A stretch of DNA of 64,000 bases from an uncultured bacterium (GCA_902826835.1 CADEGH010000001.1:290859-354858), one strand, 5' to 3'; shown: positions 1 to 58,249, counted from the stretch's first letter. Numbers and translations: made by a program. Notes: generated by a model not told the origin, from the letters alone.

Positions 1-60
1 AGCACCCTACCCGTAATTGGCCGGGCTTGCCGGGAGATCACAACACCCGACTCCCTATGT

Positions 61-3000
61 TCAAGTCCCGAGCTCGGGGGCGGGGAAAGCGACCCGGAAG
101 CCGACGCTGCCGAGCGCCCCGCCCGGGCGGCCCCAGTTCCGCGCCGCGGAGCGACACCCGGCGGCGTCGAGCCTGAAGGAGCCGCCGCGCTGGACGCGCA
201 GGACGGAGCCTTCGACGAGCGGCCCGCGCTTCGGACCTTGAGGATTTGTGAGAGTCCCCGGCGTCGCGGTTGCTGCTCGTAACTTCGGATAGCGCGCGTA
301 CACGTCGGAGCACCACTCCCAGACGAGGCCGTGCATGTCAACAAGGCCGAACGGATTCCGATGGCCCGCCGCTCCAACGTCCTTGCGCGGATCGGATGAG
401 TTTTCGTTGAACCACGCATGTGCGGAGAGCCTCTCGGGGTCGGATCCGAACCAGTAGGGCTCCTCGTTCCCGGCGCGACAGGCGTACTCCCATTCGCTCT
501 CGGTCGGAAGCCGCCCGCCGACCCAAAACGCAAACAGGTAAGCCTCCCACCAGGACACAAAAACCACCGGCCACTTGGCCCCGGCTTCCGGGACTTCAAC
601 TCCCACCAGAGCCGCGAACTGCTCGTTCGTGACCGGAACCTCACCCAGTCGGAACCTCGAAATCTCGACGGGCCAGAGGGGTCCCTCGTTAGCGCTCCGA
701 CCCGGCTCGCCTTCCGGGCTGCCGCGCTGGTAGGTGCCTCCCGGAATGGTCACAGCGTCTACCGCGGCTGACAAAATCGGCAGGTCGGCGGCCGTGAGAA
801 AATTCCGCCGCAAGCGCAGTGTTTCGTCTTCGCTGCCTGGCTCAGCAAGCAGCCCGGCTTCCTGCAAGGCGAAAGCAACATGTCCTTGCCGATCGAGGTC
901 CGGGCGAGGCCAAAAACTCGCACCGCTCTTCTTGCGAGCTGCGACAGCGCTCTCGGCCAGGCTTTTGAGATCAACCAGGTTCTTTGCTCGCCCAGCCCAG
1001 TCCTCAAACTCCTGATCGGAGAGAGCCTCGTAATACTCGACATATCGATCCACCGCTGCGGAGGTATCGAGCCAAGGATCTGCGGCGGGATTCGACTTTG
1101 GTGGGAGATCCTGCAGCTTGGGCACCATCTTAAGAGTTTCGCCGAGGACGGAGGCACGGAGAGGCCTACTCTGCGGATCACGTCGCAGCGATGCGCGGAT
1201 GAGCCGAAGCAGGTCCGTCCCATCCCAGGGCTCCGTCGCGAGGAGTGCCTGCAGGCCCTGCTCGTAGTTCCTCCATGGAGTTTCAGGGATCAGGCTTCGT
1301 AGGAACGCCGAATCCTCAACGCGCGCTCGGATCTCCTCGAAGAAGGACGGAGCATCCTCCAGGCACGCCAGCAGAAACTTCGCCGTGTTCCCGAAGTTCG
1401 CGATCCCGCCCTCTTCGGCCAACTTGCCCAGGAAGATCTCCCGGTCCGCGGGATGCTGCGCCAACCATTCTCCAGCGAGAAACTCGGCGTAGGTCCGGTG
1501 TGTGAACCGCAGATGCACCTGGCTCGACAGCGGTGAGCCTAGGAGCGCGGAGGCCTTGAGATCCGAAACGAGCGTTCGGGAGTCCTCGTGGCTGAGCGTT
1601 GTGCCGGAATCGCGCGCCCACGCCTGCAACTCCTTGCGTACCAGGTCTTCGCTGAGGGATGGATGTCCGTCGCGCAGCACCGTCCAGGCAAGTCGACGCA
1701 TGATTTGCCGCAATGAGGACACCTCCCACTTGCGGTGCTCCAGCCGCCGTGGATCGTGCGCCGCGTTGAGGAGGCGGTTCAAAGTGAAGTCGTAGAGTTC
1801 CCGCAGGCTCGATGGCAAACCCTTTCCCGGCGCCTGAATCACATGCTCCGCGAGGATCGTGAGAAAGAGAGGGTTCCCCAGTCGTTCGCCGAGCGTGGGA
1901 TCCTCCTGCGCAACGCCCAGGAGCGATTGGGAACCTGGAACACGCTCCGCCAGACGAGCCCAGAGTTCAGCTTGGTCGGTTTCATCCAGAGGGTCTAACT
2001 GGAGGTGTGCCCAACCGTCGAGGCGACGGTCTTCGTTGCTGCGCATGCCCTGCACTTTCCCGGGCACGTCATAGCCAGTAGGGCGAGTGGTCGCGACGAT
2101 CGTGAGGCCGGGGAAATCCCGGAGATACGTCGGCTCCTCTTGGTCGCCAGAGTCGAGGCTACGGAATCGCAGCGACGTCTTGCGCCTCTCCCACAGCTTG
2201 GCGTCGACCTCATCGATGCCGTCGAGGAACAGCCAGATCCGGCCATCGTGAGCCTCGTGGCGAAGCACCTCGGCCAGTTCCGTGGCATGCTCGTGGCCAA
2301 TTTCTCCCTCCGTGGCGCGCGCCGCCTGATCGAAGGCGTCGCCCTCCTCCCATTCCGCGAGAGCTACTAGGATGGGCAACGGGCAAGTCGCGCGATTTTC
2401 CTCACGGAGAAACTCCAGTGTGATCGCCTGCAGAAGACTCGTCTTCCCCGCCCCAGGCTCGCCAAGAACAACCCACGCGCGATTCGATTGTTGGTCTTTC
2501 GCCTGTGCCGCTTCAATCGCGAGCACAAGCGGGCCGCTCGTCGGTTCGACTGGGCTCGATGCGGGACCTTCCGAACTCAACGTCGGAGTCACCCAAACTT
2601 CGGCCAGCGTCTTCCGGGCCCCCTCCGGCACATTCAATTCCTTGCTCAGGCTTCGCCGTAAGTGATCCCGGTACTTCTCCAGCAGCTTCCGGCGGCGGTC
2701 ATCCTCCTTCTGCTTCTGTGTCCGGCGCTCCGCGAGCCACTCCGACAGGCCCTCACTCACCAGAGCATTGGCCCCCGGCGGCTTCGCAATCACCCCCTGA
2801 ATAGACTCCAACCTCGCCCTGGCCTCCGCCAAACCAACTCCGAGAGCCGACACGACCGCGAGGATCTCGTTCTGCCCACGGTCGAGATCGGCGAGCGCCC
2901 CGCGAAGAAGCTGGAGGCTCTTCTCCCGCCATCTCTGCACCAGCACGTCATTGCTGGCGACCAAAGCCTGGACGTAGCGCGGATACTGCGTGGCGAGGAA

Positions 3001-3504
3001 GGCGGAGAGCGACTCGAGATCTCCTTGCCGCGCCGGATCAGAGAATTCCCGGATACCTTCGTCGTAGTCGCAGAGCAGTTCTCGGAACACCAGCTCCAGT
3101 CGCGCGGAACCGACATCCTCGGAAAAACGGGTGGACTCTGCGATGGACTGGAGTTCCAGCGCCGATCCCGAGGCCGGCAGGAGCCACTCCTTACCACGAT
3201 CCGCCAACTGCTTGAGACCTACTCGGTAGGCTCCAAACCGCACATCCCCGCTGGCCTCCTCCAGGGTGCCGATCAGAGCGTCCAGGGCCACCTCCCCCGC
3301 GGAGCGCAGGTGACTGCGCAGATCGGCCCATCGCCGCGAGCGCTTGGCGGCCTCGGTCCACAGGGTTGTCAAGAAGTTCCCAGCGACGCCTGCAAGTGCG
3401 CTACCAATGGCAGCAGCCGGACCGCCTGATAGCGCGCCCGATGCGCACGAGGACACAACCACGCCCAAGAGAGGGCCCACGCTGGCCTTCATGCCGTTCT
3501 TCAT
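61..3504 (-). CDS. NACHT-family STAND NTPase (NLR-like) with C-terminal FGE-sulfatase/SUMF1-like domain and Gly/Ala-rich hydrophobic N-terminal domain
   Basis: Walker A VVLGEPGAGKTSLLQ and NACHT-type Walker B IWLFLDGIDEV (hhhhDGxDE). The C-terminal 250 aa carries FGE-sulfatase family motifs (RLPTESEWEYACRAG, GLVDMHGLVWEWCSD, RVQRGGSF). The N-terminus GPLLGVVVSSCASGALSGGPAAAIGSALAGVAGNFLTTLW is glycine-zipper-like and hydrophobic. Confidence 0.75.
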   Translation of the reverse strand: MKNGMKASVGPLLGVVVSSCASGALSGGPAAAIGSALAGVAGNFLTTLWTEAAKRSRRWADLRSHLRSAGEVALDALIGTLEEASGDVRFGAYRVGLKQLADRGKEWLLPASGSALELQSIAESTRFSEDVGSARLELVFRELLCDYDEGIREFSDPARQGDLESLSAFLATQYPRYVQALVASNDVLVQRWREKSLQLLRGALADLDRGQNEILAVVSALGVGLAEARARLESIQGVIAKPPGANALVSEGLSEWLAERRTQKQKEDDRRRKLLEKYRDHLRRSLSKELNVPEGARKTLAEVWVTPTLSSEGPASSPVEPTSGPLVLAIEAAQAKDQQSNRAWVVLGEPGAGKTSLLQAITLEFLREENRATCPLPILVALAEWEEGDAFDQAARATEGEIGHEHATELAEVLRHEAHDGRIWLFLDGIDEVDAKLWERRKTSLRFRSLDSGDQEEPTYLRDFPGLTIVATTRPTGYDVPGKVQGMRSNEDRRLDGWAHLQLDPLDETDQAELWARLAERVPGSQSLLGVAQEDPTLGERLGNPLFLTILAEHVIQAPGKGLPSSLRELYDFTLNRLLNAAHDPRRLEHRKWEVSSLRQIMRRLAWTVLRDGHPSLSEDLVRKELQAWARDSGTTLSHEDSRTLVSDLKASALLGSPLSSQVHLRFTHRTYAEFLAGEWLAQHPADREIFLGKLAEEGGIANFGNTAKFLLACLEDAPSFFEEIRARVEDSAFLRSLIPETPWRNYEQGLQALLATEPWDGTDLLRLIRASLRRDPQSRPLRASVLGETLKMVPKLQDLPPKSNPAADPWLDTSAAVDRYVEYYEALSDQEFEDWAGRAKNLVDLKSLAESAVAARKKSGASFWPRPDLDRQGHVAFALQEAGLLAEPGSEDETLRLRRNFLTAADLPILSAAVDAVTIPGGTYQRGSPEGEPGRSANEGPLWPVEISRFRLGEVPVTNEQFAALVGVEVPEAGAKWPVVFVSWWEAYLFAFWVGGRLPTESEWEYACRAGNEEPYWFGSDPERLSAHAWFNENSSDPRKDVGAAGHRNPFGLVDMHGLVWEWCSDVYARYPKLRAATATPGTLTNPQGPKRGPLVEGSVLRVQRGGSFRLDAAGCRSAARNWGRPGGALGSVGFRVAFPAPELGT

Positions 3505-4726: not shown

Positions 4727-7414
4727 TCAACGGCATTCCGCCAAGACGAGCATCAGGCGCTCGCGCCACGCACCCGGGGGGACGATCTCGAGGACCCGTT
4801 CGAGCTTGGCCGCAAAATCGAGCCGTTTGGCCGGGAACAACTTGATCGCGGCACTATCGTCCAACGCGGCCGCGACTCCCTCCAGCTCCCTCAGGAAAGA
4901 GAAATCCGAATCGCGAGGCAGCTCATCCTGCGGATGACCTTCCTCGGGAACAAACCGGCCAGAGAGTGTCACATCCGCCCACGAGGAATTGGCAATCTCG
5001 ACATAGACCTTGTCCTCATCCCCCCGGCGAATCGGAATCCGTACGTGGACTTGCGCCTGAATCGGCATCCCCTCCACCGCAACGGATTCGACTCCGCGGT
5101 CCAATCCAAACCAATGGAATTGGGTTTGCTGGCCCTTGACTTTCGGGTCCTCGAAGACATGAGCCAGCGGTCGGCCATTGACCCAGAGGGTGAATTCTCC
5201 ATGCCCGTTCGAATCACCCTTCACGTACGCCTGATAGGCAATTCTCTCGACGAGATAGACCCGTCCCTGCGGCACGAATCCTCCCGATGCACGCGCGGTA
5301 TGCCGGTCGTTGATGTCCGGAATCGCCCGCAAGTCCCGCGACTGACTCGCCTCGGAATCACCGTCGACGTTGGTCCTTCCACGGAGAGAGATGCGGTACC
5401 CGTTCCCACCCCCCGCTCCGCCATGAATCTGCAATCGCGCTACCGGAGACTCCATCCCGACCTGGTCCCGCTCCAAGGCCGCTCGGACGACCTTGGGGTC
5501 GGCAATTTTCACCCAGGAGAAGATCATCGACTCCCCGTGGACAATCTCCTCGGGGCGCATCAAGATCCACAGTTCCGAATCGCTGTCGGAGGTGTGAATC
5601 AAGAAGGTATGGCCTACCTTCGGGACCGCAGACTCGGCTCCTACCCCCGGATCCACGCGCCCGGCTCGGATACTGGCCCAGTCCACGGTGCCCAAGTCTC
5701 GAATGACGCTCACGTCGTCGACCACCATCCTCACGTCGATGGTGGCTAGTTCGCCTCCCGAACTGAGACAGAAGTCCCAGTCGTTGCGGGTCTTTTTCAC
5801 ATCGTCGCGGGTGGCATGTTCGAAGCTGTAAGTGGAGACGATGTAGCCCTCCGGGCTACCCATGGCACTGGCATAGTCGCGGTTGAGCACCGCCGACACC
5901 ATCACGTCTGGTCCATCCTTGGCACGGATTTCCGGAGTCAACGCGGCGGCACGCTGATCCAGTTCGGCCAGCCGACGGAAGAACGGACCGGTTCTTTCCC
6001 GATACTCTCGGTCCGCGGCTGCCGCCATCTCCGTTCCGAGGCGAGCCAGCGCCTGCGAATCGACTTCGATCCCATGACTGATAAGGTCGCCTCGACCATC
6101 CGTGAACTCCGGCCGCTCGGCTCGGTACGAGTAGCGAATGGTGATCGAATCGCGAGCCGATCCGCGCCGATTCTCTCCACGACGCACGATTGCCATCGCT
6201 ACCCAGCCTCCCTCCCTGACCTGGAGGAGAAATGCGTCGGAATGCGGCGTGCTACGGCCGGTGGCATTGGATCGCAAGCCGACGGACTCCGGTTCGGCGC
6301 GCACCACCGCCCGGGCGAGCGCGGCCGCAAACTTCAATTCGGGCAACGGCTCCGTGAAAACTTCGAGATTCGTGATGCGGCCGCCCGGCGTCGCGAGTGC
6401 GACAGTGCTGAGTCCACCGGCACTGGAACTGAATACGAGATCGGAGTTCTCCAGGTCCGCCGTCACTTCCTTGGTCGTGAATGAGTAGCCCTGATTACAG
6501 CAAAAAGAGAATTCTCCTTCGAAATCGAGCGAGTCGTTGGCCAGACCTTCGGGCCTCCTCGCGTCGAAGGCACGCGACTGGACCTCGACGCGGCCTTCGC
6601 GCGTCGGAACGGGACTGCCGGAAGCGGCATGTCGGCCTTCGACAGGCTCTGACGTGAGTAATGAGGCGGCGGTGGCCCCCTGATTGCCTGCACCGATGGA
6701 CGGAGTCTTGATTGACGACCCCGGGAGAGAAAGCAACCTCTCGCCGACGACCACACTTCCGACCGCCAACATCAGTGCCGCCGCACCCACCCACACCTTG
6801 GCGGCACTCGCCGTGACTCCCGCGGACGCGGATGTCGCGACCGTTGCCGCCAGCCCCGACTCCACGCCGGCAAACGCTGCCACCGACGAGACCCATGCCT
6901 CGCGGCGCCCACCATGCCGCTGATCCAAGTCGTGCCGGAGCCGTTCGAGGCCGCGCTTGGTCCGAGTCCGGATGGTCTCGACGGGCACTCCGGACTCCCG
7001 GGCAATCTCCGCCGCCTCTTTCCCCTCCACGTATCGCCGCCAGACCGCGGTGCGGTACGGCTCTTCCAGGCCTTTGACGGCCGCCAGGAGCTTCTCGTGG
7101 GTCTCCAGACTGGACGCGATATCGACGGGGTTCATAGGGGATTCGGCTCCGGCGACCTCGGCCTCGTGAGCACCGCGGCGCACCTGCGCGCGCCGCGCTT
7201 CCAGCGCCTTCTTGCGGACGACACCCTTGAGCCAGGCCCCCCAATGGCGGACCGAGCCCGACCTCTCCCGCAGGCCGAATAGCAGGGACTCCGAAACGAC
7301 GTCGTCGGGATCGACCCCGACACCGACGATGCGAGCCGCCAGCCGGCGAAGGCTGTCCAACCCGGACAAGTCCGGCAATTCACTCTTAGTATCGTTCAAC
7401 TTCCTGGTGTTCAT
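4727..7414 (-). CDS. ECF (group IV) sigma-70 factor fused to a transmembrane segment and a 650-aa C-terminal extracytoplasmic extension
   Basis: Region 2 (DPDDVVSESLLFGLRE...WLKGVVRKKALEARR) and region 4 HTH (EPYRTAVWRRYVEGKEAAEIARESGVPVETIRTRTKRGLERLR) lie in the first 180 aa. A hydrophobic Ala/Val-rich TM segment follows, then a long domain of unknown function. Confidence 0.7.
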   Translation of the reverse strand: MNTRKLNDTKSELPDLSGLDSLRRLAARIVGVGVDPDDVVSESLLFGLRERSGSVRHWGAWLKGVVRKKALEARRAQVRRGAHEAEVAGAESPMNPVDIASSLETHEKLLAAVKGLEEPYRTAVWRRYVEGKEAAEIARESGVPVETIRTRTKRGLERLRHDLDQRHGGRREAWVSSVAAFAGVESGLAATVATSASAGVTASAAKVWVGAAALMLAVGSVVVGERLLSLPGSSIKTPSIGAGNQGATAASLLTSEPVEGRHAASGSPVPTREGRVEVQSRAFDARRPEGLANDSLDFEGEFSFCCNQGYSFTTKEVTADLENSDLVFSSSAGGLSTVALATPGGRITNLEVFTEPLPELKFAAALARAVVRAEPESVGLRSNATGRSTPHSDAFLLQVREGGWVAMAIVRRGENRRGSARDSITIRYSYRAERPEFTDGRGDLISHGIEVDSQALARLGTEMAAAADREYRERTGPFFRRLAELDQRAAALTPEIRAKDGPDVMVSAVLNRDYASAMGSPEGYIVSTYSFEHATRDDVKKTRNDWDFCLSSGGELATIDVRMVVDDVSVIRDLGTVDWASIRAGRVDPGVGAESAVPKVGHTFLIHTSDSDSELWILMRPEEIVHGESMIFSWVKIADPKVVRAALERDQVGMESPVARLQIHGGAGGGNGYRISLRGRTNVDGDSEASQSRDLRAIPDINDRHTARASGGFVPQGRVYLVERIAYQAYVKGDSNGHGEFTLWVNGRPLAHVFEDPKVKGQQTQFHWFGLDRGVESVAVEGMPIQAQVHVRIPIRRGDEDKVYVEIANSSWADVTLSGRFVPEEGHPQDELPRDSDFSFLRELEGVAAALDDSAAIKLFPAKRLDFAAKLERVLEIVPPGAWRERLMLVLAECR

Positions 7415-7675: not shown

Positions 7676-9370
7676 TCAAAGGTCGAGTTCGAGTCGGAGG
7701 CGGGTCGTCATGTCTCCGAGGGCGACGTTGTTGATCACCGAGAATCCCTGCATGTACCACTCGGACTCATAGCCGGAGATGGCCGGATCGACCGTCCAAT
7801 TCCAGGTGTTGATGCCAGTGGGCGAAGAGCCGTTGAAGATCAAGGCGGTGTCGCCGGGATTAGAGAAGTCGACGAGGAAGTTCCCGTAACGCACCCGGAA
7901 GGTGTGCTGGTAGACCGGATCGGTGGAGTGCGTACTCCAGAGGTAGACTCCGCAGCGATCCGCCGGTCTCGTGGTCAGGGTCAATTGAATGGTCGCCGGC
8001 AAGCCGCCGCTGTGAATGGTCCCGAACGAGTCGATCGGACCGGACGCGAAGAAGTCGATCACCTCGACCTTGACTTCGTCGGCCCCGACATCGACGGCCG
8101 CGACTCCGTTCTTGTCGAAGTCGTCCATCCGGGGCCAGTTGAGATCGAACTCGTTGCCGAGATCGGCGCGCACCACGAAGGACGGGAGGGTGAGCGTGTT
8201 TCCCGGGACGACGTACCCGTTGACACCACGCTCGACGTTGGGGCTCGTGGTGAGGAGATGAAGGTCGGGACTCGTCGGGTTGGAATTCACGAACCCCGGA
8301 TTCGTCGTGTATTCCGATGCGACCGGGTTGGCAGAGACGTTGTTCGTGTCTCGAACCACGGTGACCGATGACGACTGGTTTTGAATGTCGGTCCCCGCCG
8401 GATTCCAGATGATGTTGTTGGCGATCGTGACGGTCTGTGGAGAAGATCCGTCGATCAGGATCCCGAACACGGATTGACCGAGACTGTGGGGCCGCCCGAA
8501 AGCGATGGTGTTGTTGACGATTCTGGTCTCACAATTGGTGGTTTGAATCTGAACTTCCGCCCCCCACAGCATGTTGGAGAACACCCGGGGTTGGGATGCT
8601 TCCGGGGCGGCGTAGTTGAAGCAGATCAAGTTGTACTCGTGTTCGATGAACTCGTTCGCCCGGAGCAAGGTCGAACTTTCCCCGCGGTTGATCAGAAGTA
8701 CGCCGCCGCTGACGTTGAATCCAAACAACCGGTTCTGTTCGATCACATGCCGGTCGCGCCATCCTTCGTTGGTATTCACTTGGATCGCCCACATGCACTC
8801 TCTCGTTGTGCAGCGACGGATTTCGACGGCCTCGGGGGTGGCGAGGGGCTGACTCCCAAACTGCCCGAGGTCCAACCGGATCGCCGCGCCGGCGAAGCCG
8901 TTGCGGATTTCTAGGCCCTGCAGAATCGAAGACGGGGTCGCCCCCGCCGGACCCGAGGCCACACCGGGATCCACGCAGAGCAAGACTTCACTGGAACCCT
9001 GGCCGTCGATCAGAACGCCGGGGGCATGGGCTTCCAGGCAGAGGCCTCGAGCCGGGAAGAAGATCGGAAAGAACTCCCCGAGGGCGCTGTCGTAGACACC
9101 GGGCATCACATTGACGGTCACCGGAATCCCCGCACTCAACGCTGCCGCGGCTTGGCCAAGGGCGTAGGTGATCGTCCGAAAGGGGGCGGCAAAGCTCCCG
9201 CCCGAAGGCACGTCGATTCCGGAGACGGCAGAGACGTAAAGACGAGATCCGCCGTCCCACGGTCCGAGCGCGCCTCCTTGAGCGAGCCCGGCGACCGCGA
9301 GGCAGAACAGACTGGCCGCAAGTCTTGGGCAGCGGCCGATTGGAACTGGAACTGCTTTCATGTTCTTCAC
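7676..9370 (-). CDS. secreted right-handed parallel beta-helix repeat protein (pectate-lyase-fold-like)
   Basis: N-terminal signal peptide (RLAASLFCLAVAGLAQGGA). Repeated NxxG / VxxN beta-helix-like segments, rich in Asn/Gly/Thr. The fold call is tentative. Confidence 0.55.
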   Translation of the reverse strand: MKNMKAVPVPIGRCPRLAASLFCLAVAGLAQGGALGPWDGGSRLYVSAVSGIDVPSGGSFAAPFRTITYALGQAAAALSAGIPVTVNVMPGVYDSALGEFFPIFFPARGLCLEAHAPGVLIDGQGSSEVLLCVDPGVASGPAGATPSSILQGLEIRNGFAGAAIRLDLGQFGSQPLATPEAVEIRRCTTRECMWAIQVNTNEGWRDRHVIEQNRLFGFNVSGGVLLINRGESSTLLRANEFIEHEYNLICFNYAAPEASQPRVFSNMLWGAEVQIQTTNCETRIVNNTIAFGRPHSLGQSVFGILIDGSSPQTVTIANNIIWNPAGTDIQNQSSSVTVVRDTNNVSANPVASEYTTNPGFVNSNPTSPDLHLLTTSPNVERGVNGYVVPGNTLTLPSFVVRADLGNEFDLNWPRMDDFDKNGVAAVDVGADEVKVEVIDFFASGPIDSFGTIHSGGLPATIQLTLTTRPADRCGVYLWSTHSTDPVYQHTFRVRYGNFLVDFSNPGDTALIFNGSSPTGINTWNWTVDPAISGYESEWYMQGFSVINNVALGDMTTRLRLELDL

Positions 9371-9738
9371 TACCTGGGTGGTTGAGAGGCCGGAAAGTCG
9401 ACCTCGTCCCCCTGGCGGAGCAAGCCCGCGGGTGTGTCTCGAAAAAACTCGCGGACGAAAAAGTCGGCGGCCAGAAAAATCCTCCTAAATCCGAGAAACA
9501 CCTGCCTCCCGTTGTCGCCATGGTCGCCGCTTTGGTTCGAACGAACGGCTCACGTCGAGCCGGTTTGAATCGCAACCACCACTTGACCAGGAGCGCAGCG
9601 TTGTCCGAAGTCGTCCACGGGAGCGGCCAAGACGAACTCATCGCTGCCGAACCGATCCTGGGGCCGAGCGCAGTACCAGCGCGGCACCGGACGTCGACGC
9701 GGTTCCGTGCGAGTCGGATCGGCTACGATCTCGTCTCC

Positions 9739-10392
9739 ATGGTCCCCCGCCCTGCCTCGAAAGACCTGGCCCTCGCCCGCCTCGGAGATCGGGAGGCGCT
9801 GGATCGGGTGCTGGCGCGCAATCACGAGCGATTCCTCCGCCTGGCCGACCACTGCCTGGGCGACCACCTCCGTGCGCTCGTTCGGCCAAGCGACTTGCTT
9901 CAAAGCGCTTACTTGGACGTCGTCAAGACGGTGGCTCGGTTCGACGGCGAATCCGAGGAAACCTTCGTCACGTGGGTAGCACGCATCCTCGAAAATACCG
10001 TTCGCGACAAACGCCGCTATTTCGACGCCGTGAAACGCAAGCGACTCGCGGATTCCGCGAAGCCGGAGCCCTTGAGCGAGATCACCGACCCTAAACAACC
10101 GACTCCGAGCCGCCAAATCACCGCCCGCGAGGATCTCGACGTCGTCGAGAAAGCCGCGGCCAACTTGCCCGAGGACTACCGGCGAATCCTCGACCTGTGC
10201 GTCCGCGATGCCATGACCCACGAAGAGGCGGCCGCGCGCATGGGCCGCACTCCGACCGCGACCCGCATCCTGCTCTCTCGAGCTCGGGCGGCTCTCGTGA
10301 CGGAAGTCTCCCGTCGCCGTCGCGACCTCGAGTCTCGACCATCCACCCTGCTGCCTCCCGGGGGGCTCGCGCCGCCTGGACTGGACCCATAG
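9739..10392 (+). CDS. ECF sigma-70 family RNA polymerase sigma factor
   Basis: Region 2 DLLQSAYLDVVKTVARFDGESEETFVTWVARILENTVRDKRR and region 4 LPEDYRRILDLCVRDAMTHEEAAARMGRTPTATRILLSRARAAL. The ATG at 9739 is in frame. The longer upstream ORF from a TTG at 9325 has no sigma-like sequence. Confidence 0.75.
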   Translation: MVPRPASKDLALARLGDREALDRVLARNHERFLRLADHCLGDHLRALVRPSDLLQSAYLDVVKTVARFDGESEETFVTWVARILENTVRDKRRYFDAVKRKRLADSAKPEPLSEITDPKQPTPSRQITAREDLDVVEKAAANLPEDYRRILDLCVRDAMTHEEAAARMGRTPTATRILLSRARAALVTEVSRRRRDLESRPSTLLPPGGLAPPGLDP

Positions 10393-10395
10393 ACC

Positions 10396-11625
10396 ATGAT
10401 CACCCCTCACTTGAGCGCTTCCCGTGTCCTACTGCTTGCCCTGACCTTGCTGAGCTCAGCGATACCCCTCCCCGCGCAGGTTACGCCCGCGGGCGTCGAG
10501 TCGCCCTACGTCAACCTGACCATCGAACCCCGAGGACTTCTCAAGTGGGACGCCGTCGCATTGCACGTCGACGCGCGGCGGGGCGCTTGGGTCACGGTGT
10601 TTGCACGAGCGGTGCTTCCGATCGACTTGGTCGATGCGAGCACCTACGAGTCTTTCATCTCCCAGTATCCGTGGCTCGAGGATGCTTCGTGGACGCCGGA
10701 GTCCCTCAACCTCGCCCTCGCGGTGGCCGAGATACCCCCCACAAACCCCTTCACGACCGACGTCTCTCTCATCGATCCTCAGGATCTCGCTTCGCACTGG
10801 TCGAGTGTCGTCCAGGCGGATGGAGCCGAGCTGGTCCGCACCCGCGCGCAGCCGGTCCTGGGATCCACGCCTATCGGGGCTCTCCACCGTCGACCGTGGA
10901 GGGTCGACTGCGGCGCTTGGGACTACAGCCTGACCGGTTCAGCGCAGCCGATGCGAGAGACGTGGGCTTCTCGATTGGCGGGTGTCGAGTTGGGTTACGA
11001 CGATACGAACGGCACCTGGTTCTCGAACGAGCGGGTGCTCACGGAGTGTCTCATCGCGCAGTCCGGGAGCACCGAGGCGGCCCGGGAATTCCTGGAGCAC
11101 ACGGGTGGAATGCACTACGCAGTCGGCCTCGGGCTCTCCGTCGTGTATCAGGCCGTGGCCTATGAGGACCACCTCGGGCCTCCCTTCCCCTGGTACTCCG
11201 ACTTCACGGACGTCACGGTGCCCGGACTTCCAGGTCTTGCGGTCGCCGCCCCCGCGCCTCGCCCGCCGACGCCACGACTCAGCGGCGCTCGGCTGGTGAG
11301 ACCGACGGTCGGTGCGCCCGTTTCGGGCTCGAGCACGCCCGGCCCTCAACCCATCGAGGAGATCCTCTATGGGCCAACGGCCACCGTCAACGGAGACCTC
11401 GTGCTTCCCCTCCACGGGATGGCGGGGCCTTTCTCCTGTGTCATCAAGCATGGCACCCGCACGCGCTCCATCCCTGGCTTCTTTGCGGCCTCGGGTTCCG
11501 TGCGATTCCCCTTGCCTGCGCTCGTACCGGCGGGTGCGACCATTCAAATCCTCAGCGTCACCAACGCCTGGGGCACCACTTCCGGGGCGGGAATGCCGTG
11601 GGAGTGGGTGCTCGTCGGGCCCTGA
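10396..11625 (+). CDS. secreted hypothetical protein, starts 3 nt after the ECF sigma stop
   Basis: Signal peptide MITPHLSASRVLLLALTLLSSAIPLPAQ. No recognisable anti-sigma (ZAS/RskA) motif. Coding-like composition. Confidence 0.5.
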   Translation: MITPHLSASRVLLLALTLLSSAIPLPAQVTPAGVESPYVNLTIEPRGLLKWDAVALHVDARRGAWVTVFARAVLPIDLVDASTYESFISQYPWLEDASWTPESLNLALAVAEIPPTNPFTTDVSLIDPQDLASHWSSVVQADGAELVRTRAQPVLGSTPIGALHRRPWRVDCGAWDYSLTGSAQPMRETWASRLAGVELGYDDTNGTWFSNERVLTECLIAQSGSTEAAREFLEHTGGMHYAVGLGLSVVYQAVAYEDHLGPPFPWYSDFTDVTVPGLPGLAVAAPAPRPPTPRLSGARLVRPTVGAPVSGSSTPGPQPIEEILYGPTATVNGDLVLPLHGMAGPFSCVIKHGTRTRSIPGFFAASGSVRFPLPALVPAGATIQILSVTNAWGTTSGAGMPWEWVLVGP

Positions 11626-11640: not shown

Positions 11641-14433
11641 TCAAGGGGCGATGGCCCACGCAAGGAGGGCTTCGATCTCGGGCAACCTCGCCGTACGCCC
11701 CGACGACACGAATCGAGTCTTGGCCGCCTCCGACGCCTGCCGACAAGCTTCCCGATCGCCACGCTCGCAGGCGATCGCCGCGAGAGCAAAGTAGGCCTCA
11801 TCGACCTCCGAGGGCGACGGAGCCACGATGCCCTTCCCCTCGGTCGCGATGACGGCTCGCGCCGCCGCCTCGGCGACTGCGAAGAGTCGCTGTCGTTCGG
11901 TGCGGGACAATTCGTCGTCCGCGGCGAGCGCAACCGCCGCGGCCATGCAGTTGGAGGCGTGGCTCGAACTATCGGGGTCCGCGGCCATGGCGGCCTCGAA
12001 TCGTTCGACTGCGAGGTGAGGATCGCCACGCAGTTGGGCCGCCCACCCACCTGCGGCCAGCGCTCTCCCCTTCGCCGTGGCGTGGTTCGTATTGGCCGCG
12101 AGCGAAGCCGCTTCGGCCTCCACGCGCGCCACGGCGCCGAGCGCCTCCGCGCCAAGAGTCCCCTCAGCGGTCGGATCCTCCGATCCACTGAGTTCAGCGA
12201 GGTCGATCGCCAAGAGCGACGCCGCCGCCTGGTCTCTCAGTGCAGCCGATCCAGCCAGCTCCCGCGCCCGCTCCAGGAATCGCCGCGCCTCCCTCCCCTG
12301 CCCGCGGCCCAATGCCACTATCCCCGCTTCAGCCAGGAGCTCGGCATCGTCGGGATGCTGGACGAGACCTTCTTCGATCATCCGGTCCGCGGCGGCCTCG
12401 TCACCACTCCGCCGCACTATCTCCGCACGCAAGAGCCGCGTTCCGGAGTTTTCTTCATCCGGATTCAAAGCAGAGAGTTGGGCGAGCGCCTCCCTGGTCT
12501 CGCCCCGAATGAGATGCAAACGGGCCCGATTACGCCGGACCAACGATTTGGCGATGCCGGTCGTCGAGAGCCCTTCGAACGCACTGAGCGCCTCCGCGTG
12601 GCGGCCCTGGTCGGCCAGGAAGATCGCCTTCGCCAGTTTGGGTCGCACCGCACGATCGTCCGCCGTGATGGCTCGCTCAATTTCCGCAAGCTGGGCATCG
12701 GGCGGGGATCCCGCGGCGCGGAGTGCGAGGGAAGCAAAGACGTGACGCTCCGGATCGCGGTCAATCTCCGCCGTCAAGACCACCGCCGTCGATGTGGCGG
12801 CGGCGAGAGCGGCATCGAGGTCTCGGCCGGGGCCACCCGTCGGAGGAGGATCATTCAATAGGGCAAGCAGTAGTCCCCGGGCCTTGGCCTTGTCGCCTCG
12901 CAAAAGATGAGCGAGGGCGACCGCGAGGCGGGATCGCCGCGGCTCGATGGTGGCCGCCACGGTCGAGTCCAACTGTCGCATGACTTTCTCGAGCGCATCC
13001 GCACTTTGGGCCGCGGCCCGATCCTGGAGCTGATCGAGAAGCGCCTCTATCGCTCGCCGAGCCCGAACTTCCACGACCAGAGCCAAGACGTCGTCATGCC
13101 GACTTGCGCGCCGCGTCGCCTCCTCCGCAAGCCCCTCGGCGAGGTCGAGGTCGCCGCGCCGGACCGCATCCCGGGCCGCCGCGAGAGTCCGCCGCAACGC
13201 CGCGCGCACTTCGAGCGACTGGACGGCCCAGACCGTGAGGATCGTGGTCACGATTCCGAGTGAGACCGCGGAGACGATGGCGATCTTCCGGTTGCGACGA
13301 AGCCACCGAGCGGCACGTCCGATCCTGCCCACCGCGCGCGACCGGATTGGTTCGCCGCGGGCCACGCGCTCCAGGTCCTCCGCGAATTCGAGCGCAGTCG
13401 AAAATCGACGCGAGGGCTCCTTCTCGAGAGCCCTCAGCACCACGGTTTCGAAATCGCGGTCGGACGCCTCGAGGCCGAGCCGGGGTGGAGCATCGGAGAC
13501 GATGGCGCGCAGGAGCCGCTCCGGATCGTCTTCCGGGAATGGCAGACGACCGGTCGCCACTTGGTAGAGCGTGGCTCCGAGCGCGTACACATCCGTACGG
13601 GGCTCCACGCGGGGCTGGCCTCTCTGCAATTGCTCCGGAGCCATGAACGGAAGCGTTCCGGCGACTGCCCCGGTCTTGGTGAGGGCGACTTCGCCAAGGG
13701 TTTTGGCGAGGCCGAAATCGACCAGCACCGGCGCCTCTCCGTCGAAGATGATGTTCGCCGGCTTCACGTCCCGGTGCACGACTCCGGCGAGGTGCGCGGC
13801 ATCGAGGGCGCGGGCCACACTGGCGCCAAGCTTCGCGACTTCCCGTGGCGGCAAAGTGCCGAGGATTCGGTCCACGCCGGGGCCGCTCAAGTACTTCATG
13901 GCGATGAACGACTGGTCGTCCTCTTCGCCGATCGCCCAGATCGGAACGATGTTCGGATGTTCGAGGGATGCCGCGGTCCTCGCTTCCCGGCGAAAGCGCT
14001 CGGCGGCGGAGCCGTCCCGCGAACGCAAGTCGCCGAGTACCTTGAGCGCGACGGCCCGTCCCAGCGACTCCTGCACCGCGAGAAAGACCTGCCCCATGCC
14101 CCCTTGACCTAGGCGGTCGACGATTCTGAACTCGCCGATTCGCTCGGGGAGTGGGGAGCGTGCAGGGCCGGGGCCGAGGGAGGCAAGAGCGTCGAACACC
14201 CCCGAAGCGGCATTGATCAGGGACCGGAGTCGGCGCTCCAAGACCAGGTCACCCCCGCAGAGGATCTCGATGTCTGGGCGCGTTCCTTCGTCGGCGTCCA
14301 GCCACTGAACGAACAAACCCTGGGCTCGGGTATCGAGGGTGTCAGGGTCGGAGTCACCGGATCGGGAAGTCAAGCCGAAGACTCTATCGCGGCGCGTGCC
14401 TCCAGCGTCGCGAGGAAATCTCGTCCCGACCAC
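11641..14433 (-). CDS. Hanks-type Ser/Thr protein kinase with transmembrane helix and C-terminal TPR-like repeat domain
   Basis: Kinase motifs GQGGMGQV (Gly loop), AVALK, HRDVKPANII, DFGLAK and APE. TM helix IAIVSAVSLGIVTTILTVWAV. About 500 aa of helical TPR-like repeats. Confidence 0.8.
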   Translation of the reverse strand: MVGTRFPRDAGGTRRDRVFGLTSRSGDSDPDTLDTRAQGLFVQWLDADEGTRPDIEILCGGDLVLERRLRSLINAASGVFDALASLGPGPARSPLPERIGEFRIVDRLGQGGMGQVFLAVQESLGRAVALKVLGDLRSRDGSAAERFRREARTAASLEHPNIVPIWAIGEEDDQSFIAMKYLSGPGVDRILGTLPPREVAKLGASVARALDAAHLAGVVHRDVKPANIIFDGEAPVLVDFGLAKTLGEVALTKTGAVAGTLPFMAPEQLQRGQPRVEPRTDVYALGATLYQVATGRLPFPEDDPERLLRAIVSDAPPRLGLEASDRDFETVVLRALEKEPSRRFSTALEFAEDLERVARGEPIRSRAVGRIGRAARWLRRNRKIAIVSAVSLGIVTTILTVWAVQSLEVRAALRRTLAAARDAVRRGDLDLAEGLAEEATRRASRHDDVLALVVEVRARRAIEALLDQLQDRAAAQSADALEKVMRQLDSTVAATIEPRRSRLAVALAHLLRGDKAKARGLLLALLNDPPPTGGPGRDLDAALAAATSTAVVLTAEIDRDPERHVFASLALRAAGSPPDAQLAEIERAITADDRAVRPKLAKAIFLADQGRHAEALSAFEGLSTTGIAKSLVRRNRARLHLIRGETREALAQLSALNPDEENSGTRLLRAEIVRRSGDEAAADRMIEEGLVQHPDDAELLAEAGIVALGRGQGREARRFLERARELAGSAALRDQAAASLLAIDLAELSGSEDPTAEGTLGAEALGAVARVEAEAASLAANTNHATAKGRALAAGGWAAQLRGDPHLAVERFEAAMAADPDSSSHASNCMAAAVALAADDELSRTERQRLFAVAEAAARAVIATEGKGIVAPSPSEVDEAYFALAAIACERGDREACRQASEAAKTRFVSSGRTARLPEIEALLAWAIAP

Positions 14434-24718: not shown

Positions 24719-25285
24719 TCAGATTTTCGTGATCTCTTCGGTCTTCTTCTTCAGAAGCTCGTCGATCTTGGCCTCGTGTTGTTTGGTGAGGTCCGTGATC
24801 TTGGTTTCGAGGTCACGGGCCTGATCCTCGGTGAGCTTGCCGCCTTTGTGGGCGACCTGGGATTCTTTGTTGCCGTCGCGGCGGACGTTGCGCACGGCGA
24901 TGCGCTGCTGTTCGGCCACTTCCTTGGCGTGGTGCGCGAGCTTCTTGCGCTGCTCCTCGGTGAGCATGGGGACGGGCAGACGAATCATCTTGCCGTCGCT
25001 TTGAGGAGTGATCCCGACGTTGGAGGCGAGGATGGCCTTTTCGATCGCGGGCACGAGCGTCTGGTCAAACGGCTTGAGCACGATGGTCTTGCCGTCTTGG
25101 ACCGAGACCTGCGCGACCTGGGCAATCGGGGTCATCGACCCGTAGTAGTCGACACGGATGTGGTCGACGAGGCCCGGAGTCGCGCGGCCGGTGCGGATGC
25201 CCTTCAAGTCCTGCTCGAGGCGGGCCACCGCCTTCACCATGCGATCCTTCGACTCGTTGAGGATGCCGTTGAAGCTTTGTTCCAT
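24719..25285 (-). CDS. frr: ribosome recycling factor
   Basis: 188-aa protein MEQSFNGILNESKDRMVKAVARLEQDLKGIRTGRATPGLVDHIRVDYYGSMTPIAQVAQVSV... is a typical Frr. ATG at 25283-25285 on the minus strand. Confidence 0.9.
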   Translation of the reverse strand: MEQSFNGILNESKDRMVKAVARLEQDLKGIRTGRATPGLVDHIRVDYYGSMTPIAQVAQVSVQDGKTIVLKPFDQTLVPAIEKAILASNVGITPQSDGKMIRLPVPMLTEEQRKKLAHHAKEVAEQQRIAVRNVRRDGNKESQVAHKGGKLTEDQARDLETKITDLTKQHEAKIDELLKKKTEEITKI

Positions 25286-25308
25286 GGGAGCCTTCTTCTT
25301 CGGGGCGG

Positions 25309-26903
<1,595 letters not shown>

Positions 26904-30509: not shown

Positions 30510-31309
30510 GATTCGAGCGAGCGACCGTTGCGGCCTCGCTCCATGCGGCGCAGGAACTCGCAGAGTTCGTGCACCTCGGGGGTGACCTCGGCGTGCGACT
30601 GGATTTCGTCGATGACCTCGGACTTCGGCCGGAGGGAACGGAACAATTTTCGGTGCGCCAGGCGCAGCGACTCGATCGCCGCCGCTCCGAAGCCGTTGCG
30701 CTGGAGGCCGACCGTGTTGACTTTGCGGACCTTCGACGGGTGGCCTTCGACCACCATGAACGGCGGAACGTCGTGCACGATGCGCGTGAGTCCCCCCACA
30801 TAGGAGCAACGCCCGATCGTGGCGAATTGTTGCACTCCGGCCGCGCCATTCAGGATCGCCCGATCGTGCACCACCACGTGTCCCGCGAGCAGGACGTTGT
30901 TGGCGAGGATGACACCGTCTCCGATCGTGCAATCGTGCGCGACATGCGAACAGGACATGAACAAATTGCGATTGCCAATCTTGGTCGAACCGTCGCCCTT
31001 CAGCGTGCCTCGATTGAGCGTGGCAAATTCGCGAACGCGATTTTCGTCCCCCATGACGAGCCAGGTCGGTTCGCCCTTGAAGCTCAAGTCCTGGGGTTCG
31101 ACCCCCACTGCGGCGTGCCCGTGGATGACATTGCGAGCGCCCATCCGCGTGTAACACCCGATGATGGCGTGCGGACCGATCGAGCAGCCCTCCCCGATCA
31201 TCACCGCGCCTTCGACGATTGCGTAGGGCCCGACCGTAACGCCCGGCCCGAGTTCCGCGCTCGGGTCCACCACGGCGGTGGGGTGAATGATCGGCGAAGT
31301 CGCGCTCAT
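30506..31309 (-). CDS. lpxA: acyl-ACP--UDP-N-acetylglucosamine O-acyltransferase
   Basis: IHPTAVVDPSAELGPGVTVGPYAIVEGAVMIGEGCSIGPHAIIG hexapeptide repeats and the LpxA C-terminal helical domain. Position in the lpx cluster. Confidence 0.9.
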   Translation of the reverse strand: MSATSPIIHPTAVVDPSAELGPGVTVGPYAIVEGAVMIGEGCSIGPHAIIGCYTRMGARNVIHGHAAVGVEPQDLSFKGEPTWLVMGDENRVREFATLNRGTLKGDGSTKIGNRNLFMSCSHVAHDCTIGDGVILANNVLLAGHVVVHDRAILNGAAGVQQFATIGRCSYVGGLTRIVHDVPPFMVVEGHPSKVRKVNTVGLQRNGFGAAAIESLRLAHRKLFRSLRPKSEVIDEIQSHAEVTPEVHELCEFLRRMERGRNGRSLES

Positions 31310-32604
31310 GCGTCCATCATCATGAATTTCATGACCACTTCACAGGAAAGTTCGTCGTTCACGGACGCTCGACCCCGGACCTTGCCGGAACGATTCTTGA
31401 AATTGAGGGTTTCGCACTCAAGCCGCAGCGTATCGCCCGGCACCACCGCGCGGCGGAACTTGATGTGGTCGATGGCCAACAGGACCGCGACCTTGCCAGT
31501 GTTTTGCAGGCGGCGCAGGAGCAATACCCCCGAGAGCTGGGCCAAGGCCTCGACTTGCAGGACTCCGGGCATGATCGGTTGGCCCGGCCAGTGGCCCTGA
31601 AAATGAGGCTCGTTGAAGGAGACACACTTGATGCCCACGGCTCGCTGGTACCCCACCAGTTCGAGGACCCGATCGACAAACAAAAAGGGATAACGATGAG
31701 GGATGATCTTCATGATCTCCTGCACCGACATCCCGGTGTCCGACTGAACCACTCCTTTGGCTTCGAGTTCGCCGAGGCGACGGGACAGGAGGCGCACCAA
31801 CTCGTGGTTGGCAGCGTGCCCGCTGCGCGAAGCCACGATGTGGGCCCGCAAATCGGCTCCGAAGAGCGCCAAGTCCCCGATCAAGTCGAGGATCTTGTGG
31901 CGCGCCAGTTCGTTCTGGAAGCGGAAGCTGTTCTCGATCGGTCCCTGCTCGGACAAGACCAGCGTGTTTTGTGTGGTAGCGCCCTTACCCAGTCCGGCCT
32001 CTTGGAGCGCGCGGGCTTCCCGCTCGAGGCAGAATGTCCGAGCCGGCGCAATTTCGGCGAGGAATCGCTCTTCGTCGAGATCGACCATCCCGCTTTGGGC
32101 CCCGTGGATCCCCATGCTCGGGTAATAGAGACTATAGGAGAGGCGTAGCCCCTCGGCATGGGGAAAGGCCGTAATGGTGGCATCTCCCTGCTGCACGGTG
32201 ATCGGAACGTCGAGAGTGAACGTCTTGCGCGGCTGCTTTTGGTCGACTCTCCCGCCTTCTTTCAGCGCCAAGGCAAACGGCAGGCTCGATCCGTCGAGGC
32301 CGGGCACCTCGGGGCCGTCGATCTCGACTTCGACGTTGTCGAGGCCGAGCGCGAAGAGCGCGGAGGTGAGGTGTTCGACGGTGCCGACTTCGGCTTCGCC
32401 GGCGGCAATCACGGTTTGGCGATTCCGTTCGATGACGGCATCGCGCTTCAGCGGGATGCGCGGTCGCCCCGTGAGATCGGAACGAATGAACACGATGCCC
32501 GTGTCGGCCTCCTGGGGCCGCACGAGGACATTGGTCTCGCGGCCCGAGTGCAACCCGACCCCGCGCAAGGCCACTTGGCTCTTGAGCGTTCGCTGATTCC
32601 TCAC
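31306..32604 (-). CDS. lpxC/fabZ: bifunctional UDP-3-O-acyl-GlcNAc deacetylase / 3-hydroxyacyl-ACP dehydratase (LpxC-FabZ fusion)
   Basis: The N-terminal 280 aa is LpxC-like (TLKSQVALRGVGLHSGRETNVLVRPQEADTGIVFIRSDL...). The C-terminal 150 aa is a FabZ hot-dog domain (IPHRYPFLFVDRVLEL...HFQGHWPGQPIMPGVLQVEALAQ). Confidence 0.85.
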   Translation of the reverse strand: MRNQRTLKSQVALRGVGLHSGRETNVLVRPQEADTGIVFIRSDLTGRPRIPLKRDAVIERNRQTVIAAGEAEVGTVEHLTSALFALGLDNVEVEIDGPEVPGLDGSSLPFALALKEGGRVDQKQPRKTFTLDVPITVQQGDATITAFPHAEGLRLSYSLYYPSMGIHGAQSGMVDLDEERFLAEIAPARTFCLEREARALQEAGLGKGATTQNTLVLSEQGPIENSFRFQNELARHKILDLIGDLALFGADLRAHIVASRSGHAANHELVRLLSRRLGELEAKGVVQSDTGMSVQEIMKIIPHRYPFLFVDRVLELVGYQRAVGIKCVSFNEPHFQGHWPGQPIMPGVLQVEALAQLSGVLLLRRLQNTGKVAVLLAIDHIKFRRAVVPGDTLRLECETLNFKNRSGKVRGRASVNDELSCEVVMKFMMMDA

Positions 32605-57966: not shown

Positions 57967-58079
57967 CCTTCCTCCAACGTCTCTTTCTCAGCCACGATGC
58001 AGTTCGCACAGGGCAACCCGTGCTTGGCCAAGACGGCGGCGACCCGATCGTCCGCGGAAAGCAGATCGATCACCTTCAT
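57900..58079 (-). CDS. small DUF1858-like redox-disulfide domain protein (hypothetical)
   Basis: MKVIDLLSADDRVAAVLAKHGLPCANCIVAEKETLEEGCRPLGLDPTPIIAELN resembles the small CxxC hybrid-cluster-associated disulfide domain. Overlaps the annotated recG 5' end. Confidence 0.35.
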   Translation of the reverse strand: MKVIDLLSADDRVAAVLAKHGLPCANCIVAEKETLEEGCRPLGLDPTPIIAELNTLPPR

Positions 58080-58249
58080 CGATGCCTGGAAGCGCGCCGG
58101 TTGGTCGTTCGAAGACTCCGCCCCGCGTGTTTTGCCCCGGCTCTTCACGCCCCGATGGTCGGTGGTCGGGCATCCAAAATCAAGCGCATGGCCTGATAGG
58201 ATCCGGTCAACGGGGTTCCTTCCGCGCCCTGTCTTCGGAGACTCGAGCG

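Follow-up and report, generated by a model that had tools for sequence, protein, structure and literature searches.

A probable DGR-type variable region in the non-catalytic FGE-sulfatase sensor of an NLR-like NACHT protein from an uncultured planctomycete

The 64,000-nucleotide stretch of an uncultured bacterial genome analyzed here (GCA_902826835.1, CADEGH010000001.1:290859-354858; hereafter the window) carries on its minus strand a complete gene for a NACHT protein of 1147 residues that ends in a formylglycine-generating enzyme (FGE)-sulfatase domain. From N- to C-terminus the polypeptide comprises a leader rich in Gly, Ala and Ser, an orphan helical domain, a NACHT module, a helical spacer, and the FGE-sulfatase (FGS) domain, which has a C-type lectin (CLec) fold and is assigned the role of sensor. 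On the strength of its motifs and domain matches, the product is very probably a bacterial receptor of the NACHT clade of signal transduction ATPases with numerous domains (STAND), related to the nucleotide-binding leucine-rich repeat (NLR) proteins. An earlier note on the window had proposed a genuine open reading frame at this position, a NACHT core with intact Walker A and Walker B motifs, an FGE-sulfatase domain at the C-terminus and, altogether, a tripartite NLR-like layout, all of which are borne out. The feature that it overlooked, a variable region (VR) in the sensor of the type produced by diversity-generating retroelements (DGRs), is the most informative one.

Pfam identifies the NACHT domain at residues 344-514 with a score of 29.2 bits, above the gathering cutoff of 26.7, and the FGE-sulfatase domain with high significance (Table 1). 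The hallmarks of NACHT proteins are all present, namely a Walker A motif of the GxxGxGKT form, a Walker B motif of the hhhhD[GAS]hDE form, the sensor-1 arginine, a helical motif of the NPLxLT type (GNPLFLT, residues 543-549) and a winged-helix motif of the FxHxxxxE[FY]L form. These positions are invariant in an alignment of six NACHT proteins, this one and five others, four of which contain an FGE domain (P0002, P0006, P0009 and P0010). The AlphaFold2 (AF2) model of residues 290-1147 has a mean predicted local distance difference test (pLDDT) score of 48.5, with values of 60-90 over the NACHT part only. The top 40 PDB matches of this partial model obtained with Foldseek are exclusively animal NLRs (NOD2, NLRP3, NLRP7 and NLRC4), with E values from 4.6e-13 to 1e-8 and high root-mean-square deviations. 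A word-indexed search with residues 336-910 matched one distant protein.

Catalytic FGEs bind Cu(I) through a pair of cysteine residues in a CxxxxC motif (C336 and C341 of the human enzyme). The FGE domain of the window protein aligns with FGEs of solved structure in the PDB (E 7e-20), such that the segment FRLDAAGC lies opposite FLCHESYC. The first Cu-binding cysteine is replaced by Leu1112, and the nryR loop that follows this position is deleted, which rules out a catalytic formylglycine-generating enzyme. None of the four other aligned NACHT-FGE proteins keeps both cysteines (0/4). Position 1112 is itself hypervariable, a leucine here and an asparagine in the ortholog described below, and because the catalytic position is among the variable ones the domain is read as a binder and not as an enzyme. 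As judged from these alignments, the domain cannot be a formylglycine-generating enzyme and is a predicted binder, in agreement with the sensor role that the earlier note had given it.

The variable region emerged from comparison with the ortholog P0014 (L083 923-4366), which has the same length and 96.8% nucleotide identity, corresponding to 111 nucleotide differences. Within the VR, 15 of 96 nucleotides differ, compared with 2 of 903 in the remaining FGE region (Fisher P = 2.2e-14). The 15 substitutions in the last 144 nucleotides fall in codons 1102, 1111-1113, 1123, 1124, 1128 and 1131-1133, and all ten changed codons are non-synonymous. No change occurs at codon position 3 (0/15, versus 56% elsewhere; P = 4e-6), and adenine is present in one of the two alleles at 13 of the 15 VR sites, versus 47 of 96 sites elsewhere (P = 0.01). 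Codon pairs such as CTC/AAC, AAC/GGC, TGG/AAG, CTC/AGC, AGC/TTC and GGC/GAC belong to the NNC, GNC and NNG types. In the mutagenic retrohoming of DGRs, template adenines become any base, and the VRs lie at the C-terminal end of CLec or FGE folds. The window gene shares these traits of DGR targets, a C-terminal VR in a CLec/FGE fold with adenine-linked variation at codon positions 1 and 2, and residues 1102-1133 are probably a DGR-type variable region that has undergone DGR-type hypermutation. The divergence between the two orthologous genes is a mosaic, amounting to ~3.9% in the first 2.4 kb and ~0.2% in nucleotides 2400-3300, which points to the 3' third of the gene having recombined recently. 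Downstream of the ortholog, a palindromic element, ATGGCGCA(G/A)TTGCGCCAT, occurs twice, 134 bp apart (L083 4632-4649 and 4766-4783); it is absent from the 64-kb window.

A third allele is provided by a pseudogenised paralog, identical in two independent assemblies (L001 8694-10072, plus strand, and L002 104-1432, plus strand). Four in-frame stops interrupt the paralog, its Walker A motif reads GEPRAGKT and roughly residues 445-973 have been deleted; its 3' end, on L002, has the VR and the 3' flank well preserved. Nucleotide identity with the window gene is 57% over the gene body versus 88% at the invariant sites of the last ~100 nucleotides, and 80% over the terminal coding sequence together with the 3' flank. 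Within the VR the paralog differs again at codons 1123, 1124, 1128 and 1131-1133, and the three alleles have three different bases at position 2 of codon 1128. This dead target may still have its VR rewritten by a DGR. A divergent gene for a 2089-residue polymorphic toxin of the RHS/YD-shell/PT-HINT kind (L001 2238-8507, minus strand) adjoins the pseudogene.

Eighty loci with the closest relatives of the FGE domain were surveyed for DGRs. The locus of Fischerella sp. CENA71 (L017 10625-12472) contains a canonical cis DGR, consisting of a template repeat (TR), a reverse transcriptase (RT) and a VR in an FGE-domain target, and all of its TR/VR mismatches are at TR adenines (19/19). The codons templated in this locus and the variable codons of the window gene occupy the same three patches of the fold, after RGGS[FW], after CRSA.R and before [VI]GFRV. 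No other locus among the 80 is canonical; in L027 (Chromatiaceae) a second VR-like copy is present on the opposite strand. The homology support for a link to DGRs is therefore real but not general. Because neither a TR nor an RT was found in the available DNA, any DGR must act on the window gene in trans, and we infer a trans-acting element encoded elsewhere in the genome. The window encodes a second FGE-sulfatase protein (57956-59605, plus strand), of 549 residues, with an N-terminal hydrophobic segment and the FGE domain at residues 317-547 (E 1.9e-22), which has no catalytic CxxxxC motif. As a co-target it was rejected, since it is distant (32% identity over 91 residues in the best segment) and has no VR sequence in common with the NACHT-FGE gene.

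Table 1 Features of the NACHT-FGE gene in the window and of the canonical DGR on a related FGE-domain target.
Feature	Position	Strand	Evidence or remarks
Complete coding sequence (CDS), 1147 residues	61..3504	-	ATG start; leader, orphan helical domain, NACHT module, helical spacer, FGE/C-type-lectin-fold sensor
Residues 1-48, conserved Gly/Ala/Ser "zipper" leader	3361..3504	-	Start ATG 3502-3504
Residues 49-335, all-helical domain, no known family; presumed output or adaptor module	2500..3360	-	
Residues 336-700, NACHT module (nucleotide-binding domain, helical domain, winged helix)	1405..2499	-	Pfam, motifs, Foldseek
Walker A	2440-2463	-	GEPGAGKT, residues 348-355
Walker B	2209-2232	-	LFLDGIDE, residues 425-432
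Sensor-1	2080-2091	-	TTRP, residues 472-475
Winged-helix motif	1471-1506	-	FTHRTYAEFLAG, residues 667-678
Residues 701-915, helical spacer, without family assignment	760..1404	-	
Residues 916-1139, FGE-sulfatase domain (FGS, C-type-lectin fold), non-catalytic	88..759	-	Pfam E 8.5e-39
Residues 1102-1133, probable DGR-type variable region	106..201	-	10 codons and 15 nucleotides vary
Invariant 3' end of the CDS and 60 nucleotides of 3' flank, candidate DGR cis region (like an initiation of mutagenic homing site, IMH)	1..105	-	Paralog conservation
Canonical DGR of Fischerella sp. CENA71 (L017)	VR 10625-10750; RT near 11960; TR 12347-12472		RT with YVDD

The N-terminus of the protein is probably misplaced in public data. 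The NCBI-derived protein P0001 (1103 residues) starts at a TTG at codon 45 (L45, 3370-3372) and leaves out the leader, in which a Gly/Ala-rich string occupies residues 10-49. The paralog on L001 keeps the leader from its own Met1 (MKHLPKASVGPLVGLAVSETISGTLSGGLAGATAGVLAGVGGNLLTT). Among the 47 leader codons compared with this paralog, 10 are the same, 19 show synonymous changes alone and 18 show non-synonymous ones, with 13, 12 and 31 differences at codon positions 1, 2 and 3, respectively, and the 120 nucleotides upstream of the ATG cannot be aligned with the paralog. The ortholog P0014 was called at 1147 residues by another pipeline, and its sole leader change is S8R. An untranslated leader, as implied by the annotated TTG start, is ruled out by the third-position bias of the substitutions together with the unalignable upstream DNA. 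Since the codon pattern in the paralog, the upstream DNA and the length of the ortholog call point the same way, the comparison identifies the ATG at 3504 as the true start and the leader as translated. The codon-usage score of codons 1-44 is weakly positive (0.08 versus a gene mean of 0.36), and of the three frames, frame 0 scores best. P0001 likely drops, through mis-annotation of the start site, a conserved and translated N-terminal segment of 44 residues (window 3370-3504, minus strand).

Within the leader, small residues recur at the i to i+4 spacing more often than expected from composition (P = 0.006), with no other spacing enriched, and the same enrichment is found in the only paralog (P = 0.007). 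The conserved stripe of small residues comprises positions 10, 14, 18, 22, 26, 30, 34, 38 and 42, and both flanks of the leader are positively charged. The Gly/Ala-zipper string described in the earlier note is thus present, its periodicity being supported statistically in gene and paralog. Among the glycine-zipper families of Pfam, the match to Gly-zipper_Omp (E = 2, 8.9 bits) is not significant, and it is only the [GAS]xxx[GAS] periodicity that is supported. The orphan domain that follows (residues 49-335) has no match in Pfam. An exhaustive phmmer search of 1.84 billion representative sequences with residues 1-335 returned the protein itself and two adjacent in-frame pieces of a single pseudogene, the paralog on L001.

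The combined explanation that accounts best for these observations, and that we consider reasonably likely, is an NLR-like receptor whose sensor is rewritten by a DGR in trans and whose output is delivered by the N-terminal head. An RT and a template repeat elsewhere in the genome would rewrite the VR, and also that of the decayed paralog. On the model of Avs and bNACHT proteins, the lectin fold would bind a foreign molecule, of phage or non-kin origin, through its variable surface, and binding would free the NACHT module for nucleotide exchange and oligomerisation. Oligomerisation would cluster the N-terminal modules, leader and orphan domain together, and the clustered heads may then insert into and damage the inner membrane, or nucleate further assembly, leading to growth arrest or cell death. 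This output step is hypothetical, whereas there is good support for the receptor identity and for the hypermutation. N-terminal membrane-targeting heads are found in the fungal HeLo/HET-S system, in helix alpha-1 of the coiled-coil (CC) plant resistosome and in the GxxxG N-terminus of the VacA type. Like these heads, the leader is a short, hydrophobic N-terminus rich in small residues, for which insertion would be possible only once oligomers have formed; no homology to them was demonstrated in sequence or in structure. A bolder version, which we regard as unlikely, is that leader and orphan domain form an unclassified executioner head, soluble in the monomer and turned into an oligomeric glycine-zipper pore of the inner membrane upon NACHT assembly, with a remote DGR acting in trans on the dead paralog as well. 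If true, one polypeptide would couple a retroelement-programmed, antibody-like receptor to a pore-forming death module, and the protein would be a bacterial counterpart of the plant resistosome with an adaptive-style sensor.

A number of results weigh against the favoured explanation. The comparison of alleles comprises only two orthologous and one paralogous sequence. Neither a TR nor an RT was found in the 64-kb window (for RT, among open reading frames of at least 250 residues), in the 617 bp downstream on L083 or on L001, and TR pattern scans of metagenome and viral contig collections found none; a scan of the genome contig collection returned FGE-domain matches only, mostly cyanobacterial. 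No significant or conserved hairpin was found 3' of the VR. The similarity to the paralog continues for ~60 nucleotides past the stop codon, so that gene conversion of the 3' end, or conservation of a cis element, may contribute to the pattern. With respect to the output, no segment of the protein is more hydrophobic than the leader, but the best 19-residue Kyte-Doolittle window of the leader (1.58) is below the threshold for a constitutive transmembrane (TM) helix. Its insertion energy is +3.9 kcal/mol on an approximate Hessa scale, versus about 0 for real TM helices; control TM helices from the window gave +0.5 (TatC) and -0.2 (MatE), and soluble controls gave +5.5 to +7.3. The AF2 model of residues 1-340 is all-helical with a pLDDT of 50, a value at which fold assignment is unusable, and the structure prediction by which the earlier note proposed to test for a helical pore-forming head therefore yielded the helices but not the confidence to call one. 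Of the membrane-active effector that it placed at the N-terminus, the Gly/Ala string stands; the role is plausible but unproven, given the lack of a family match, the low pLDDT and the sub-threshold hydrophobicity, and a membrane-effector output is to our minds doubtful. The association with antiphage systems is also thin. PADLOC gave only P-loop-level matches for the NACHT-FGE protein, and similarity to any named antiphage family is confined to the domain level. The NCBIfam model of the antiphage protein EruA (NF058535) scored 59.6 bits, against a cutoff of 1000, over residues 501-690 only, and was rejected as a partial domain match; a literature search did not find the name EruA for an antiphage protein. 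Within about 10-20 kb there are no known defence genes, the sole match being that of a generic kinase domain to PD-T4-6, and the accessible literature yielded no phenotype data for any FGS-type NLR.

Could the clustered substitutions have arisen from ordinary diversifying selection, from recombination between alleles or paralogs, or from both, with no retroelement involved? The failure to find a TR or RT in any of the available DNA is compatible with such an origin, as are the paralog similarity beyond the stop codon and the mosaic divergence (3.9% versus 0.2%), which shows that recombination has occurred at the locus. However, selection alone fails to explain why third positions are completely avoided, why the codon pairs are of the NNC/GNC kind and why the sites are biased towards adenine, the 15 changes stand on a 0.2% background, and the coincidence with the TR-adenine positions of the canonical homologous target in Fischerella is left without a cause; we consider this origin improbable. 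A different question is whether the same receptor serves an end other than antiviral defence, in kin/non-kin (allo)recognition or inter-bacterial conflict, in the manner of heterokaryon incompatibility by fungal NLRs. This alternative, raised for DGR-diversified STAND proteins by Doré et al. (PMC10907252), gains from the polymorphic toxin gene adjoining the paralog and from the lack of phage-defence genes near the window gene. A single adjacency, to a pseudogene, is nonetheless weak evidence, the bacterial NACHT and Avs proteins characterised so far defend against phage, and an ATPase in the cytoplasm would have to come into contact with non-kin molecules; a purpose of this kind seems unlikely.

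The remaining alternatives concern the leader. It may be a homotypic assembly motif of the amyloid-like signalling type known from fungal and bacterial NLRs (BASS/HRAM), or a peripheral membrane tether, with a separate protein acting as the effector. The leader is short, N-terminal, Gly-rich and conserved, is built of two pseudo-repeat arms and is too weakly hydrophobic for a classical TM helix, and N-terminal amyloid motifs have been documented in bacterial NLRs. The partners in bacterial amyloid signalling sequence (BASS) pairs are normally adjacent genes, but the search for a second copy found none in the window or on L001 (617 bp downstream being seen on L083), which argues against a two-gene amyloid-signalling pair. 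The upstream neighbour, a DUF6268 outer membrane protein (OMP)-like protein, has an unrelated C-terminus, and the exhaustive search with residues 1-335 revealed no partner anywhere, the NCBI proteins of the same genome included, so we give this proposal little credence. An export or lipoprotein signal, with n-region MKNGMK, an h-region and VSS preceding C20, would place NACHT and sensor outside the cytoplasm. The V-S-S-C sequence of residues 17-20 is consistent with a lipobox, DGR targets are in many cases surface proteins, and in Doré et al. (PMC10907252) a periplasmic location is predicted for one NACHT-CLec target. Yet Cys20 is a threonine in the paralog although the next 27 residues are conserved, which is unexpected for a cleaved signal; conservation reaches residue 47, far past the length of a signal peptide; and a P-loop NTPase needs cytoplasmic nucleotide. 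We attach hardly any probability to export.

The host belongs, by its gene relationships, to an uncultured lineage of Planctomycetota. The nearest relative of its DnaB is 72% identical, and the named matches, at 63-65%, are to "Planctomycetes bacterium"; the contig L001 that carries the paralog has the planctomycete cytochrome genes PSCyt1/PSCyt2. The window is core chromosome, with rpsB, tsf, frr, lpxB, lpxC-fabZ, lpxD, bamA, dnaB, tatC, recG and others. Around the NACHT-FGE gene lie large lineage-specific proteins (DUF6268 OMP-like, a sigma-r4 fusion, beta-helix, Ser/Thr kinase, FG-GAP, astacin and HEAT-repeat proteins). Linkage to a defence island, which the earlier note had raised, fails here, the neighbours being housekeeping genes or lineage-specific secreted and signalling proteins. 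The kinase (11641-14433, minus strand; 930 residues) matches the PD-T4-6 kinase models of PADLOC with E 6e-81; it is not read as a defence gene because the match covers the generic kinase domain only. The sigma-r4 protein (4727-7414, minus strand; 895 residues) has sigma-70 region 4 (107-161) as its only recognisable domain, followed by a hydrophobic stretch and ~650 residues without any, which makes it an unusual fusion of sigma or anti-sigma-like kind; an extracytoplasmic function (ECF) sigma factor is encoded separately at 9325-10392 (plus strand). Elsewhere in the window, an LpxC-FabZ fusion (31306-32604, minus strand) lies within the lpxB, lpxC-fabZ, lpxD, bamA cluster, and the frr reading frame (24719-25723) probably starts further downstream, since its RRF domain is confined to residues 169-331.

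The earlier note saw in the protein a candidate for an undescribed system. Its architecture is not undescribed, since STAND or NACHT proteins with an FGS domain are a named class in the literature. Kaur et al. (2021, eLife, PMC8195603; 2020, PMC7159879) described STAND NTPase-FGS conflict systems with a variable N-terminal module, in which the FGS domain is a predicted invader-binding sensor of lectin fold, often linked to a DGR in cis or elsewhere in the genome. In Kibby et al. (2022, bioRxiv 10.1101/2022.07.19.500537), NACHT proteins with an FGS C-terminus are one of two "antigen receptor-type" classes, and a survey of STAND/Avs proteins (Nature 2026, PMC13581612) recognised FGE-sulfatase-like sensors structurally. 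Doré et al. (2024, PNAS, PMC10907252) defined DGR clade 5D, typically with two NACHT/nSTAND1-CLec targets, often with unassigned N-terminal extensions, and with trans targets, none of these DGR-diversified proteins being characterised. The window gene belongs to this published class, described only by bioinformatics, and is not a new kind of system. Its own features are the planctomycete host, the status of remote target, the decayed second target and the orphan N-terminal module with a glycine-zipper-like leader.

The closest counterparts are the targets of clade 5D of Doré et al. Like them, and like the targets of DGR 3 and 6 of Thiohalocapsa PB-PSB1, the window protein has a central NACHT domain, a single C-terminal CLec/FGE domain and a C-terminal VR, and shares the placing of variable sites at codon positions 1-2, a pair of paralogous targets, an uncharacterised N-terminal extension and remote targets (trans action being our inference here). 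It differs in that TR and RT were not located and the neighbourhood is housekeeping, in its planctomycete host, for which there is no evidence of multicellularity here, and in the conserved Gly-zipper leader, which is not described there. The STAND-FGS proteins of Kaur et al. have the same order of NTPase and FGS domain and an N-terminal module of their own; however, none of their modules (effector-associated domains (EADs), bDLD3, TIR, DRHyd, calcineurin, caspase, trypsin, kinase and FHA) matches here, and the exhaustive phmmer search detected no EAD-sharing partner. With bNACHT (Kibby et al.) and Avs proteins (PMC13581612) the window protein has in common a NACHT domain with intact motifs and, as far as the model goes, an NLR-like fold. 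Unlike these, its similarity to named antiphage families is at the domain level only and it has no defence-island context, and FGS is absent from the domain lists of experimentally tested bNACHT proteins in Kibby et al. For the sensor alone, Treponema TvpA (PDB 2y3c) has a homologous FGE domain (E 1.4e-10), and the VR of the window gene shares its C-terminal patches with the TR-templated codons of the Fischerella target. Both differ in having TR and RT in cis, and TvpA, a lipoprotein of the cell surface, has no NTPase.

Among bacterial systems, DGR-diversified NLR-like receptors come closest to an immune receptor that diversifies somatically, and no experiment has characterised any of them. 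The gene described here is a compact, single-gene case, in which two natural alleles have sensors that differ almost only in the VR and a decayed second target is at hand; it therefore offers a clean substrate for testing the ligand specificity of the VR and the role of the N-terminal head. The public annotation, which lacks the conserved 44-residue N-terminal segment, is corrected. The location of the gene indicates that such receptors can be remote targets in ordinary chromosomal neighbourhoods, where searches based on defence islands would miss them.

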